The position numbers and the translations under genes were made by a program. From the NCBI GenBank assembly GCA_965208325.1, contig OZ242326.1, positions 608,001 to 672,000 of the forward strand: a DNA stretch of 64,000 nt, read 5' to 3'. Of the stretch, positions 2 through 59,857 are shown piece after piece. The notes below the pieces were generated by a model. It did no database searches, was not told the DNA's origin, and saw only the letters and a program-made list of their open reading frames with translations. Within the stretch, counting starts at the first letter, position 1. Each line of letters opens with the position of its first letter. This DNA is from Candidatus Poribacteria bacterium (GTDB taxonomy: Bacteria; Poribacteria; WGA-4E; PCPOR2b).

Positions 2-196
2 ATTTTGGAGGCTGATGTCGGGGTGTTGATTGGCACCAAGCAAACCGCTGTTCAGGCAATGAAGCGGTTTGGTATTCCCACGCGAGAAATTACCGGCAAA
101 GATAGATTTGGTTCCGTCCGTGATGTTTCACGCACCGTGCTACGTGTGGATTCATGGGAGACATTAGGGCATTTTCTCGGATATGAAAAGTCATAG
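2..196 (+). CDS. 3' end of a gene truncated by the window start; possibly a HAD-family phosphatase (TH2/thiamine-phosphate-phosphatase-like C-terminus)
   Basis: Frame is open from base 2. ILEADVGVLIG...FGI...VDSWETLGHFLG resembles the LLEADIGIVIG...SW segment of TH2-type HAD domains (recalled similarity only). Confidence 0.4.
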   Translation: MLEADVGVLIGTKQTAVQAMKRFGIPTREITGKDRFGSVRDVSRTVLRVDSWETLGHFLGYEKS

Positions 197-406
197 CCAA
201 AACGACGAACAGACAGTGCGGTAGAAGCTACACAGATTTTAGCAACGCAAACGCCCAAGAAACGCATTATCACCCATTGTTCAACCAGGTTTCCGGATAT
301 GAACACACGCAGTAATTGGATTAATCATCTCCGTTTCGAGGTTTGACTTATCATGTTGTTTTACGGGAGAGATTTGCGCGAGTGAGAATACAGGAGGGAA
401 GTCATT

Positions 407-56031: not shown

Positions 56032-57450
56032 TTACTTGGCTATAGACGGAATGCGTTTCCAAATCCCTGTAGCTTGTTCAAAGGCGTGAGCCATTTGCAG
56101 CACGCCGAAGTCATCTTGATGCCGCCCTACAATCTGCACGCCCACTGGCAAGCCTTCCGGTGTGAATCCGCATGGAACTGAGATGGCGGGCAGACCCGTA
56201 ACGGTTACATAGTAGCAAGATTTCATCCAGTCAATGTAGGTCTCCATTTTTACACTGCCAATTTCCGTTACATATCGTTGTGTCACGTCAAAAGGCGGTA
56301 CCTGGTTCACAGGAAGAATTAGAAACTCGTAGGTATCCATGAATTTCCGAACACGGTGAAAAATTTCAGTCTGTTTGAGTTCAGCCCATCCGATTTGCGG
56401 CCCGCTTAACTTCTTCCCCTCTTCGATATTCCAGACGATTGTGTCCTTCAATTGGCCGCGGTGGGTCTTCAGCAAGCCGTTAAATGCAAGTTCAAAGCGC
56501 CACGCCCGCCATATCTTGAAGACTTCATCCGCATCAGTAAAATCGGGTTCACCATCCTCGACTACGCAGCCCAAGTCTTCGAACACGCGCCGCTGGCTAT
56601 TGATGGTGTTTGTTACGCGCGCATCCATCGGCAGCCCCCCCAAATCATGTCCCCAAGCGATGCGCGCACCTGTAAAATCACGTTCGAGAGGACGAGCGAA
56701 TCGACCGCCCGGCTCAGCGATGGCGATAGGCGAACGCGAATCCGGCCCGGCGATAGCGCTCAATACGAGTGCGGCATCTTGGACTGTTCTTGCCATTGGC
56801 CCCTGTACTGTAATTGGAAACCAACCTGTTAAGTTCGGCCATATCGGCACTCTGCCATGGGACGTGCGAAAACCAACGACATTACAGAAGTTGCCGGGAA
56901 TACGCAACGAGCCGCCCATGTCGCTTCCGTCCGCGATTGGCAGCATCCTACACGCTAAGGCCGCTGCTGCACCGCCGCTGCTGCCGCCGCAGGTTTTTGA
57001 GGTGTCGTAGGGGTTCAGCGTTTCTCCGAATACCGCGTTAAAAGTCTGTGCCCCCGCGCCGAATTCGGGTGTATTGGTTTTACCGATGGTGATTGCTCCG
57101 GCTGTCTTCAGCCGCTCTACAATGAGTGCGTCTTCGTCCGGTACAAAATCCTTGTAAATCGGAGATCCGAATGTGGTGCGGATTCCTTGAGTTTCAAACA
57201 AATCTTTGTGCGCTATCGGCAGTCCATGCAAAGCGGCCGTCGATTCACCGCGTGCCAGTGCCTCGTCGGCGGCGGCAGCTTGTTCAATCGCTAGCTCGGG
57301 TAACAAAGTAACTATGGCGTTTACTTTAGGGTTAACACGCTCGATTTGCGCTAAATGGGCTTCCATCACCTCTTTGACCGATACATCTCTTGCCCGAATG
57401 CGTCGGCTCAACTCGGAAGCTGTCATATAGCAAATTTCTTGGTGGGACAT
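56032..57450 (-). CDS. Amidase (amidase signature family)
   Basis: LHGLPIAHKD, GKTNTPEF, GGSSGG, GSDMGGSLR. Confidence 0.93.
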   Translation of the reverse strand: MSHQEICYMTASELSRRIRARDVSVKEVMEAHLAQIERVNPKVNAIVTLLPELAIEQAAAADEALARGESTAALHGLPIAHKDLFETQGIRTTFGSPIYKDFVPDEDALIVERLKTAGAITIGKTNTPEFGAGAQTFNAVFGETLNPYDTSKTCGGSSGGAAAALACRMLPIADGSDMGGSLRIPGNFCNVVGFRTSHGRVPIWPNLTGWFPITVQGPMARTVQDAALVLSAIAGPDSRSPIAIAEPGGRFARPLERDFTGARIAWGHDLGGLPMDARVTNTINSQRRVFEDLGCVVEDGEPDFTDADEVFKIWRAWRFELAFNGLLKTHRGQLKDTIVWNIEEGKKLSGPQIGWAELKQTEIFHRVRKFMDTYEFLILPVNQVPPFDVTQRYVTEIGSVKMETYIDWMKSCYYVTVTGLPAISVPCGFTPEGLPVGVQIVGRHQDDFGVLQMAHAFEQATGIWKRIPSIAK

Positions 57451-57682
57451 GGCGAATTCATCTCACTCTCACGATTGTTCAATTCACAGAATTCAAGACT
57501 TAAACCTCGCAGCATTGGGTGCGGCAGGTTCGAAACATCCTCAGTAAGCTGCTAGCTGTCCGGCTCAAAATTAGTTCTGCGGTAGCTTAACAGAAGGCCA
57601 AATAAGCGTCAACACAAATCCCTCCGATCACCGTGACACTGAGCAGATTGTCAATAATACCACTTCGGCCGTTAAAATTGTC

Positions 57683-57711
57683 TTGATATACATTGGGCAT
57701 TGTGATAAAAT
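57683..57711 (+). promoter_or_regulatory. Sigma70-type promoter of the metG leader
   Basis: TTGATA-17 nt-TAAAAT with TG before the -10. Confidence 0.6.
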
Positions 57712-57788
57712 AGCAAGGTTAAGGTAAATCATTAATTTACAGGTTGGTAAATAAGTTAATCACGCAATCTCAATCCGGATTATTCTCA

Positions 57789-57842
57789 ATGAAGCGCTTT
57801 GCCATTCTTTCCAATATGGGCATGTCCATGTGTTCAAGTTAA
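57789..57842 (+). CDS. Met-rich leader peptide MKRFAILSNMGMSMCSS (putative metG attenuator peptide)
   Basis: 17-codon ORF with ATG at codons 10, 12 and 14, lying between the promoter and the terminator upstream of metG; weak GGA RBS. Confidence 0.7.
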   Translation: MKRFAILSNMGMSMCSS

Positions 57843-57938
57843 AGTGATAACGGGCGTGCCACAATCAGACTTGGGATTAGCTGTAACATTTTCTTTGTAG
57901 AATCGCCTATTATCACCGCGGTGATAATAGGTTTTTTT
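57819..57938 (+). promoter_or_regulatory. Transcription attenuator (protector 1:2, antiterminator 2:3, terminator 3:4)
   Basis: GGCATGTCC(57819-27)/GGGCGTGCC(57852-60); GTGATAACGGGCG(57844-56)/CGCCTATTATCAC(57904-16); terminator hairpin below. Confidence 0.7.
57906..57938 (+). terminator. Intrinsic terminator inside the metG leader
   Basis: CCTATTATCAC-CGCG-GTGATAATAGG followed by T7, ending 26 nt before the metG ATG. Confidence 0.85.
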
Positions 57939-57964
57939 GTTTCAGTCTAAAGGGACTCAGGTTC

Positions 57965-59857
57965 ATGGGTAAATTCTACATCACAACGCCAATTTACTAC
58001 GTTAATGCGGAGCCGCATGTCGGTCATGCGTACACAAGTATTGCCGCCGATGCGCTAGCACGGTATCATAGCCTCAAAGGGGACGATGTGTTCTTTTTAA
58101 CGGGTGTGGATGAACACGGTGCAAACATTGAAAAAATCGCGGCTGAAAATGGAGTGTCGCCGCAGCAATATTGCGATCAGATAGCGCCGGCCTTCACAAA
58201 TCTCTGGAAGAAGCTAAATATTTCCTACAATATTTTTCTCAGGACGACCAGTGATTTACACAAACGCGGCGTGGCGAAACTCCTCACTAGTCTTCATGAA
58301 TCCGGCGATATATATAAAGACAAGTATGAGGGATATTATTGCCGCCCCTGCGAAAGTTTTTACATGGATAAAGAACTCGGCGAAGCAAAGGCATGTCCGG
58401 TACACCGGTTGCCCGTGGAATGGGTGGAAGAAGAGAACTACTTTTTCGCATTGTCGAAATACGAAAATCGGTTGCTCGATCATATTAACGCCAACCCAGA
58501 ATTTATTCAACCGGACAGCCGGCGTAATGAAATCCTTAGCGCAATCGAGTCAGGATTGAAAGATGTTAGCATTTCAAGAGCATCCGTGTCGTGGGGAATT
58601 CCATTGCCGTTCGATCCTACCCACAATATTTATGTTTGGATTGAGGCATTGTGCAACTATATCACAGCGCTCGATTATCATGAGACCGGCGAAAAATACC
58701 GCAAGTATTGGCCGGCCGATTTACATCTGATGGGGAAAGAGATTACCCGCTTTCACGCTATAATTTGGCCCGCAATGTTAATGTCTGTCGACCTGCCGCT
58801 GCCCAAGCAGGTTTTCGGACACGGGTGGTTGACCAAGGACGGAAAACGGATTAGCAAAACAACAGGTAACATTATTGATATGGATGCGCTGATTGACGAG
58901 TTTGGTTTAGAAGCATTTCGCTACTATATGATGCGTGAATTCAGTTTTGGCAATGACGGCGACTTTCGGCGCGATCGCTTTGTGTTGAGGTATAACGCTG
59001 ATCTGGCAAACGATCTTGGCAACCTGCTCAATCGCACGCTAGGACTTGTCGCAAAGCACTTCGGCGTCGTTCCTGATCCTTCGACGCCCGGCGAATTCGA
59101 CAGCGAAGTCAAACAGGCGGCATGCGAGACAGTAAACGAGGTCTATTCGCTTATGAGCCGGCGCGCGTTTGATGCAGCGTTGGAAGCTATCTGGGAGTTT
59201 GTGCGTCGTGTCAATCGCTATGTTCAGCAGACACAGGTTTGGACGCTGGCGAAATCGGAGGAAGACAAGAGGCGCATGGGAACTATCCTATATAACAGCA
59301 TGGAAGCCCTGAGAACGGTTGCCGTTCTGATTTCACCGTTTATGCCTGACACCGCAAACCGCATCCGCCAGCAGATGGGGCTCGATGAGAGTTTCAACGC
59401 GCAGGGATTAGACACGGTCGCGCAGTGGGGCGGATTACCATCGGACATTCCAATTCGGAAACCTGAGCCAATATTCCCGCGAAAGGATACGAAATCGGTG
59501 CAAAGCATGAATGCAGAAGGAACTGAAGACGCTAACCTTGTTTCGTTCAAAGATTTCCAGTCGTTAGACTTGCGTGTTGCGGAAGTTATTGCTGCCGAAC
59601 GCGTGCCTAATGCGGACCGGCTGCTGAAACTACGCGTCAGTATCGGTGATACAGAGCGGCAAATCGTTGCTGGCATCGCCGAGAATTACACGCCGGAGGA
59701 TTTAATCGGGAAACGGGTGATACTCGTTGCAAACTTAGAACCTGCCACAATCCGAGGGATTAAATCTCAAGGGATGTTGCTCGCGGCCGCCGACGGAAAT
59801 GACCTCGCAGTCGCGACGATTGAAAAGGCGTTGCCGGCGGGAACACGGGTAAGCTAA
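57965..59857 (+). CDS. metG: Methionine--tRNA ligase with C-terminal tRNA-binding domain
   Basis: YITTPIYYVN.EPHVGH (HIGH), TGVDEHG, YVWIEAL, KRISKT (KMSKS-like), LANDLGNL, OB-fold tail SQGMLLAA. Confidence 0.97.
   Translation: MGKFYITTPIYYVNAEPHVGHAYTSIAADALARYHSLKGDDVFFLTGVDEHGANIEKIAAENGVSPQQYCDQIAPAFTNLWKKLNISYNIFLRTTSDLHKRGVAKLLTSLHESGDIYKDKYEGYYCRPCESFYMDKELGEAKACPVHRLPVEWVEEENYFFALSKYENRLLDHINANPEFIQPDSRRNEILSAIESGLKDVSISRASVSWGIPLPFDPTHNIYVWIEALCNYITALDYHETGEKYRKYWPADLHLMGKEITRFHAIIWPAMLMSVDLPLPKQVFGHGWLTKDGKRISKTTGNIIDMDALIDEFGLEAFRYYMMREFSFGNDGDFRRDRFVLRYNADLANDLGNLLNRTLGLVAKHFGVVPDPSTPGEFDSEVKQAACETVNEVYSLMSRRAFDAALEAIWEFVRRVNRYVQQTQVWTLAKSEEDKRRMGTILYNSMEALRTVAVLISPFMPDTANRIRQQMGLDESFNAQGLDTVAQWGGLPSDIPIRKPEPIFPRKDTKSVQSMNAEGTEDANLVSFKDFQSLDLRVAEVIAAERVPNADRLLKLRVSIGDTERQIVAGIAENYTPEDLIGKRVILVANLEPATIRGIKSQGMLLAAADGNDLAVATIEKALPAGTRVS

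Follow-up and report, generated by a model that had tools for sequence, protein, structure and literature searches.

A Probable Methionine-Codon Attenuator before metG in One Genus of Poribacteria and Its Kinship with a thrC-Type Leader Family

Can a ribosome waiting at methionine codons decide whether the gene for methionyl-tRNA synthetase (MetRS) is transcribed? This question is raised by the promoter and 5' leader of metG in a bacterium of Candidatus Poribacteria (GenBank assembly GCA_965208325.1, contig OZ242326.1). The window, by which we mean the whole 64,000-nucleotide (nt) stretch of DNA analyzed, corresponds to G000:C1:608001-672000 in a complete 4.7-Mb genome, and positions without a genome handle are those of the window. 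Methionine genes are known for S-adenosylmethionine (SAM) riboswitches, T-boxes, and protein repressors, and leader-peptide attenuation is proven for Trp, His, Phe, Leu, Thr, and Ile/Val; to our knowledge, the sensing of Met-tRNA charging by a leader peptide has never been demonstrated by experiment. The best reading of the metG promoter and leader, to which we give a probability of about 0.6, is that of a ribosome-mediated transcription attenuator sensing Met codons. The same inference had been drawn in an earlier, sequence-only reading of the locus, and it is now favored by comparative evidence. In effect, such a device would most likely provide more MetRS when charged methionine tRNA is short. 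If this is true, ribosome stalling can report Met-tRNA charging even though Met starts every protein.

The metG locus and its leader

The features of the leader, in which an open reading frame (ORF) overlaps the first of a series of pairing segments, are as follows.

57683..57711, + strand: sigma-70-type promoter, with the -35 element TTGATA at 57683-57688, a 17-nt spacer, and an extended -10 element TG-n-TAAAAT whose TAAAAT lies at 57706-57711
57766..57773, + strand: 5' strand of the long-range helix P1, AATCTCAA, with its partner at 57871-57878
57789..57842, + strand: leader ORF of 17 codons plus stop, MKRFAILSNMGMSMCSS, with ATG at 57789 and TAA at 57840-57842
57816..57830, + strand: candidate sensing codons Met10 (57816-18), Met12 (57822-24), and Met14 (57828-30)
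57819..57827, + strand: segment 1, GGCATGTCC, the 5' arm of the anti-antiterminator 1:2
57844..57860, + strand: segment 2, of which 57852-60 pairs with segment 1 and 57844-56 with segment 3
57871..57878, + strand: 3' strand of P1, TTGGGATT, within the antiterminator loop
57904..57938, + strand: segment 3 (57904-16), terminator hairpin (57905-57932), and T7 (57932-38)
57965..59857, + strand: metG, methionine--tRNA ligase with a C-terminal tRNA-binding domain (NF008900, 843 bits against a cut-off of 598)

The product of metG is the sole MetRS found in the genome, the two other matches being weak and representing other synthetases, and its start is preceded by a Shine-Dalgarno-type site, AAGGGA. 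The promoter-like site noted in the sequence-only reading stands where it had been placed, matches the consensus at 10 of 12 positions with a TG ahead of the -10 element, and is kept in all four genomes of the window's genus (alignment A1); transcription would start near 57718. The hairpin and T run noted before metG comprise 12 pairs (one of them G-U), a loop of 4, and T7, with an energy of -16.8 kcal/mol. This intrinsic terminator is almost unchanged in sequence in 30 leaders from two families, and ends 26 nt upstream of the metG ATG (57965). No promoter-like site was found on the + strand between 57712 and 57965, so that metG lacks a promoter of its own and all its transcripts must pass the terminator directly before it (57905-57938). 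The 17-codon ORF with three internal Met codons is likewise present, and the only correction concerns its start, at 57789; in the list of open reading frames it forms the end of a longer frame that opens with TTG (57744-57842). Met accounts for 3 of 16 codons of this ORF, as against 1.9% of the codons in long ORFs of the same genome.

Alternative pairings and the proposed switch

The pairings that the leader can form were compared in duplex energy with 1000 mononucleotide shuffles. Segment 1, GGCATGTCC (57819-27), pairs with GGGCGTGCC (57852-60) in nine pairs, two of them G-U, and the resulting 1:2 duplex has an energy of -19.8 kcal/mol, compared with -13.0 +/- 2.6 for the shuffled sequences (13 of 1000 as good). 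The 2:3 antiterminator joins GTGATAACGGGCG (57844-56) to CGCCTATTATCAC (57904-16) through 12 of 13 possible pairs, with one C/A mismatch, at -16.8 against -8.8 +/- 1.9 kcal/mol (none of 1000 as good). Because both helices use 57852-56, they are mutually exclusive. This bears out the proposal that segment 2 pairs either with the Met-codon region or with the 5' arm of the terminator, and each pairing is better than that of most shuffles. The leader thus combines an antiterminator that excludes the terminator with an upstream segment that excludes the antiterminator. Its fold as a whole has z = -2.37 (4 of 200 shuffles as good). The minimum free energy (MFE) fold contains the terminator in four of four congeners and P1 in G000, G001, and G003 (G000 to G003 being the four genomes of the window's genus, with G000 that of the window). 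The P1 duplex reaches -11.7 kcal/mol against -6.6 +/- 2.4 (37 of 1000 shuffles as good), and a G>A change at 57874 in strain contigs X6 to X9 and in G001 and G003 converts one of its pairs from U-G to U-A. The 1:2 energy lies between -13.2 and -18.9 kcal/mol in three of the four congeners and is -3.4 in G003. Folding with segment 1 masked had been suggested as a check, and one part of it comes out as predicted: as long as segment 4, the distal partner in the 3:4 terminator, is not yet made, 2:3 forms in all four congeners (-18.6 to -22.3 kcal/mol).

On these pairings, the following course of events may be envisaged. Transcription would begin near 57718, and a ribosome would translate the 17-codon leader ORF. 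With charged elongator tRNA-Met plentiful, it would reach the stop at 57840 and either cover the start of segment 2 or leave; 1:2 would then re-form, the 3:4 terminator would fold, and transcription would end. With Met-tRNA short, the ribosome would wait at Met12 or Met14 and occupy segment 1, its footprint ending about at the stop codon. Segment 2, being left free, could pair with the emerging segment 3, the terminator would come too late, and metG would be transcribed.

Conservation within the genus

All 41 related genomes searched have a MetRS; among the 30 upstream regions that were read, the metG leader is confined to the window's genus, g1, where all four genomes have it (MetRS identity 87-95%). 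The parts kept in alignment A1 are the promoter, AATCTCAA, the stretch CCAAT..ATGTCCATG, the GTGA..AGG arm, and the terminator. Such an alignment of metG upstream regions had been proposed as a check, and a Met-containing upstream ORF (uORF) is present in every copy, in its short form in G000, G001, and G002 and by way of an upstream ATG in G003. The inner ATG is the start in G000 and in G002, whose ORF has 15 codons, MKRFAFLSNMCMSMC; that of G001, MTRFAFLTNTGMSMRSS, has a second in-frame ATG ten codons upstream. In G003, ATC replaces the inner ATG and a 2-nt insertion abolishes the stop, but the upstream in-frame ATG is kept and yields MTQSQFLLLQITCFAFLTNIAMSMRSTNKVKIGLSHLN, which reads the same ATG-TCC-ATG and extends over segment 2. 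An ORF across segment 1 has therefore been kept open in every metG copy through start-codon turnover. The ATG-TCC-ATG that it reads, with its two Met codons, is unchanged in all copies, while Met10 is absent from G001 and G003. Having lost the stop before segment 2, the G003 ORF runs over that segment as in the ancestral architecture described below, and G003 is the sole congener without the 1:2 helix. This pattern fits the logic of a ribosome-controlled switch, in which an ORF that stops before segment 2 would need 1:2 and a ribosome that runs over segment 2 would not.

Changes within the 1:2 helix point the same way. At 57821/57858, G000 and G002 have C-G, X7 and X8 have U-G (C>T being listed at 57821 and no change at 57858), and G001 has U-A, which is a compensatory series. 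Of the stem covariation sought in another of the suggested checks, 1:2 shows this series, and the homologous P1 of the thrC-type leaders described below shows changes on both sides; the antiterminator has none beyond that of shuffles. The stretch is also present at ~93-95% identity in long DNA contigs from four sponge-metagenome runs of four studies. Among the differences listed for X6, X7, and X8, beyond which 37 further ones exist, the leader ORF shows K2T, I6C/I6V, C15R, and three synonymous sites, and the start, the stop, and all Met codons are kept. A scan of metagenome contigs with MetRS returned 80 loci, the closest at 76% identity, and added no member of the window's genus. A pattern scan of genome contigs matched 106 stretches, of which only the one in G002 (L076) is real; as ~74 chance matches are expected by our own arithmetic, the remainder were dropped.

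A family of thrC-type leaders

Within the Poribacteria, whose families are here termed f1 to f9 (with g1 the window's genus and g2 to g7 the other genera of f1), a related leader precedes a thrC-like gene. In G000 this gene lies at G000:C1:960633-961865 and its leader at G000:C1:960250-960632 (L221, L222); the leaders of relatives are L223-L250 and L261. It was reached through a genome screen for leader terminators together with a weak nhmmer match (E = 1.6), and its homology to the metG leader became evident only on reading its sequence, not from the nhmmer score. In alignment, the two share the AATCTCA and TGAATTGGGATTG strands, the GTGAnAATAGGC arm, a near-identical terminator, and a common CCAAT..ATGTCCATGCGTT stretch. 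By these shared elements, the metG leader is clearly a homologous copy, that is, a paralogue, of the thrC-type leader. It has the same P1 strands and antiterminator arm and lacks ~40 nt that carry inner hairpins; its stop precedes segment 2, whereas that of the thrC-type leader follows it, and the 1:2 helix is new. A covariance model built on the 3' core of the leader (R1) found, among the 41 relatives, one copy before the thrC-like gene in 24 of 24 genomes of f1 and 5 of 5 of f3, with none in the 6 of f2 and the 5 of f4; genus g1 alone has another, which precedes metG (4 of 4, including G000). In a phylum sample of 151 genomes, R1 matched 25 of 25 in f1, 10 of 10 in f3, 0 of 100 in f2, and 0 of 15 in f4 to f9. 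The duplication of the leader from a thrC-like gene to metG in one genus of an uncultivated, sponge-associated phylum illustrates how such a switch spreads; moreover, the family offers ~35 natural variants and R1 a means of finding more. One genome, G009, has a partial copy of the leader's 3' half, with the P1 3' strand and the terminator (L298; G009:C144:7167-7266, minus strand), at the end of an unrelated gene, apparently as a reused terminator module.

An intact uORF of 36-48 codons is present in 21 of 21 thrC-type leaders from g2 to g7, starting with ATG in 20 and GTG in one (for example, MQQSHFNFSPVTNFVLFANTTMYMPGMGIAAVAVSMRAGQSENRQL); its start adjoins the P1 strand and its end lies just past the antiterminator arm. 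Seven of the eight indels within these uORFs (3, 9, 3, 12, 6, 3, and 3 nt) are of whole codons, and the eighth, a 1-nt insertion in L235, causes an early stop seven codons before the end. In the uORFs of g5, variable sites number 21, 20, and 26 at codon positions 1, 2, and 3, and variant codons are synonymous in 25 cases and non-synonymous in 59. These counts indicate that the frame is conserved and the peptide is not; unconserved peptide sequence is usual for leader peptides. Of the 96 ATG triplets inside the uORFs of g2 to g7, start codons not counted, 93 keep to the reading frame and the other two frames hold 2 and 1; extra ATGs confined to single lineages also fall in frame without exception. 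As read from these alignments, the thrC-type leaders show selection on the reading frame and on in-frame ATG triplets. Met enrichment, which the sequence-only reading asked for in orthologous metG leaders, is found in these homologous leaders of g2 to g7.

The structure was counted in 17 thrC-type leaders and compared with slid alignments and 500 shuffles. P1 has 12 pairs, 4 of them changed on both sides, with 95.5% of cells paired, and a 13-bp inner hairpin is also supported by these counts, with compensatory changes. For the whole structure, 98.1% of cells are paired versus 32-45% when slid, and the observed values are reached by 0 of 500 shuffles on four measures and by 2 of 500 on the fifth. 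The antiterminator homologous to that of metG is paired at 88% in 30 leaders versus 31-59% when slid, so that the potential for 2:3 pairing is kept in these homologous leaders.

Other leaders in the lineage

A genome-wide screen for 5'-leader terminators accompanied by amino-acid-rich uORFs was noisy and recovered metG, ileS, two T-box genes, and the thrC-like gene. The ileS gene (TIGR00392, 673 bits) lies outside the window and has a 290-nt leader (L303; G000:C1:2211150-2211505) with a promoter-like site, a terminator of -24 kcal/mol, and a uORF ..VSALIPIIDVICASYCGGLIKTT (..ALIPIIDVI..) that crosses the antiterminator arm and in which 4 of 8 codons are for Ile. Leader and uORF are conserved in G002 (92% identity), and G001 has the 3' part only. 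This makes the ileS leader a candidate Ile-codon attenuator analogous to that of metG. In G009, a uORF ..LIISLIILLLLYESGRCRFAF is followed by an antiterminator and a terminator before a cimA/leuA-like gene (L299; G009:C375, ~180-290, reverse strand); this leader is of the branched-chain type and shares the architecture of the ileS leader. From the ileS and G009 leaders, the lineage appears to use cognate-codon leaders of a common architecture. No cimA homologue with a leader was found in G000. A serS leader was also considered as a candidate and rejected, its terminator belonging to two upstream tRNA genes.

Comparison with riboswitch and leader families

The metG leader was compared with all 4227 Rfam families at E values up to 10, and nothing was matched beyond chance miRNA-like hits. 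The T-box model (RF00230) has no match on it at this threshold, while, as a positive control, it finds two canonical T-boxes in G000 at 103 bits each, before ilvB and pheS (G000:C1:4312758-4313013, + strand, and 4489061-4489327, - strand). Both of these genes are under leader-peptide control in Escherichia coli. Thus, the organism uses T-boxes, but not here. SAM-I (RF00162) has no match anywhere in G000, and the other Rfam SAM classes have none on the metG leader. The statement that neither a T-box nor SAM-I is visible before metG therefore stands. Rfam holds amino-acid leader families for Trp, His, Leu, Thr, and Phe; none of them matches the metG leader or six thrC-type leader loci, which at permissive thresholds gave only chance miRNA-like matches and no family. 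By the absence of such matches, the lineage of these leaders is taken to be independent of the Rfam amino-acid leaders, with which they may share a mechanism.

Weighing the alternatives

Several points weigh against an attenuator that senses Met codons. Once segment 4 is present, the terminator is the MFE structure in all four genomes even with segment 1 masked, which is the unfavorable part of the masking check; read-through must therefore be kinetic. The Met codons invariant among metG copies are only two and not adjacent, and no good Shine-Dalgarno motif was found 5-12 nt before the leader ATG (AATCCGGATTATTCTCA-ATG), GGAG-type sites being present in relatives. The lack of antiterminator covariation beyond shuffles in the 30 leaders stems from too little variation. 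In the thrC-type leaders, the ancestral Met codons lie in CAUG/CAUG stems, and in one genus a stem has been preserved at the cost of a Met codon, through compensatory change at pair 91/115; RNA structure hence accounts for part of the conservation of these codons. There is no Met enrichment in the f3 leaders, which have a different uORF, or in the g1 thrC-like leaders, which lack the long uORF and retain an 11-codon mini-ORF over the antiterminator arm that starts at the last ATG (TTG in G001 and G003). Further, the gene controlled by the ancestral leader is thrC-like, and its induction by Met shortage would have no obvious logic; methionine shortage would also lower initiator charging and with it initiation on the leader itself.

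Some of these points would suit an attenuator that depends on translation without sensing the Met codons, the ATGs being alternative starts or by-products of the CAUG stems. The signal would then be how frequently ribosomes load or pass over segment 2, reflecting either the overall capacity for translation or the stabilization of P1 or of the inner hairpin by a ligand or protein. The mini-ORF to which the g1 thrC-like leader has been reduced, the conserved f3 uORF without Met enrichment, the compensatory changes in P1 and the 13-bp inner hairpin (including the one that removes a Met codon), and the position of P1 next to the start codon of the long uORF would all be in keeping with it. Yet the stretch of ~20 codons that precedes the Met cluster has no stop in any of the 21 leaders and holds three of the seven whole-codon indels, a sign that translation begins at the first ATG. 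In addition, every extra ATG particular to a lineage is in frame, the metG copy kept exactly the Met codons despite having lost the CAUG/CAUG hairpin, and the ileS leader has cognate Ile codons in the same position. We regard this alternative as rather unlikely, although more probable than the two that follow. The arms of the terminator and antiterminator are unusually well conserved in sequence between two families, the long-range helix P1 is conserved too, and the Shine-Dalgarno site is weak; these features could instead suggest that the leader switches without translation, as a riboswitch-like, protein-binding, or tRNA-binding RNA in which the ORF is incidental. Such an RNA is improbable in view of the Rfam comparison, in which true T-boxes of the same genome score 103 bits. 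Moreover, the inner hairpins of thrC-type leaders are missing from the metG copies, which leaves no common aptamer-like core beyond P1 and the switch; frame-preserving indels and an ORF retained through start-codon turnover are unexpected in an untranslated RNA. Least probable is an absence of any regulation, with constitutive transcription of metG through a leaky terminator left by a duplication or marking a small-RNA end. The element was clearly copied from elsewhere, and in G009 its 3' half serves once as an ordinary gene-end terminator, as this would have it; but the promoter, the ORF, and the 1:2, 2:3, and 3:4 pairings are counted as kept in four species at 87-95% MetRS identity, the 1:2 helix arose anew in the metG copies and has a compensatory series, and the gene standing 26 nt behind a 12-bp terminator with T7 is essential and single copy. 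We accordingly retain the Met-codon attenuator as the preferred reading.

Relation to known attenuation systems

The classical leader-peptide attenuators are those of the enterobacterial trp, his, leu, thr, ilv, and pheA operons. Like them, the metG leader has a short ORF with the codons that would be sensed, 1:2, 2:3, and 3:4 pairings, a stop that follows the last sensing codon by three codons and immediately precedes segment 2, and a terminator stronger than the antiterminator, hence kinetic control. Unlike them, its codons are for Met and are interspersed (M-G-M-S-M) rather than forming a run, the controlled gene encodes a tRNA synthetase, and the ORF and segment 2 lie within an additional long-range helix, P1. 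Met-specific T-boxes occur before metS and met genes of Firmicutes. Similar to what we propose for metG, T-boxes sense tRNA charging and act through an antiterminator/terminator switch before synthetase genes; they differ in that uncharged tRNA is sensed directly, without translation. An attenuator before an aminoacyl-tRNA synthetase operon is known in the E. coli pheST leader, which differs from the metG leader in the amino acid concerned.

In Streptomyces lividans TK24, leaders have been predicted before leuS, trpS, alaS, and thrS (PMC8079986). These and the pheST leader resemble that of metG in having a cognate-codon ORF through which poor charging raises, or would raise, synthetase expression. 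In the portion of that report available to us, the S. lividans synthetase leaders are described for leaderless transcripts, several lack a clear terminator, and none is given for metG (PMC8079986). The same portion includes a predicted leader peptide, metL, before metNIQ, MSTTSDRTPATEATTTPGARCMCRRMCAF (PMC8079986). It resembles the metG leader in its proposed dependence on Met and in the interspersed Met codons near the end of the peptide, and differs in controlling an importer, in its unrelated sequence, and in a termination that its authors consider unclear; neither comparative nor experimental testing of it is described in this portion (PMC8079986). A full-text literature search found no Met-codon leader for metG, which agrees with the remark in the sequence-only reading that no characterized case was known, though metL comes close in the amino acid proposed to be sensed.

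Methionine metabolism and the thrC-like gene

The genus that carries the metG leader is unusual in its methionine metabolism. A Cys_Met_Meta_PP enzyme is found in none of the four g1 genomes, as against 37 of 37 other relatives, and G000 lacks MetX, MetA, and MetQ and has a MetE-like protein. From this gene content, it may be suggested that g1 either needs external methionine or has an unusual homocysteine route. Elsewhere in the genome, a match to a homocysteine S-methyltransferase domain (133 bits) at G000:C1:588981-589922 is interrupted by two TAA stops in frame and may be a disrupted metH-like gene.

G000 encodes three paralogues of the ThrC family. MetM is reported to be a ThrC-like homocysteine synthase (as cited in PMC13759103). 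As NCBIfam models do not separate the three paralogues of G000 and no sulfur-carrier gene stands beside the thrC-like gene, a MetM role for the latter remains a guess. A joint reading of these observations can be offered tentatively, with odds clearly against its being right in full. The leaders would form a uORF attenuator family specific to the f1/f3 lineage, of which the Met-codon form senses Met-tRNA charging; this form would have been copied from the thrC-like gene to metG in a genus that has lost the sole pyridoxal phosphate-dependent enzyme of Cys/Met metabolism present in its relatives, the original losing its Met codons. The rewiring would be tied to methionine supply, and the leader-controlled ThrC paralogue might be a MetM-type homocysteine synthase acting in the synthesis of methionine rather than threonine.

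A further hairpin, AAGCTGCTAG..CTGCGGTAGCTT, without a match in Rfam, lies at 57551-57593 of the window, between divergent genes and 5' of an amidase gene on the minus strand (56032-57450), and is kept in the four congeners.

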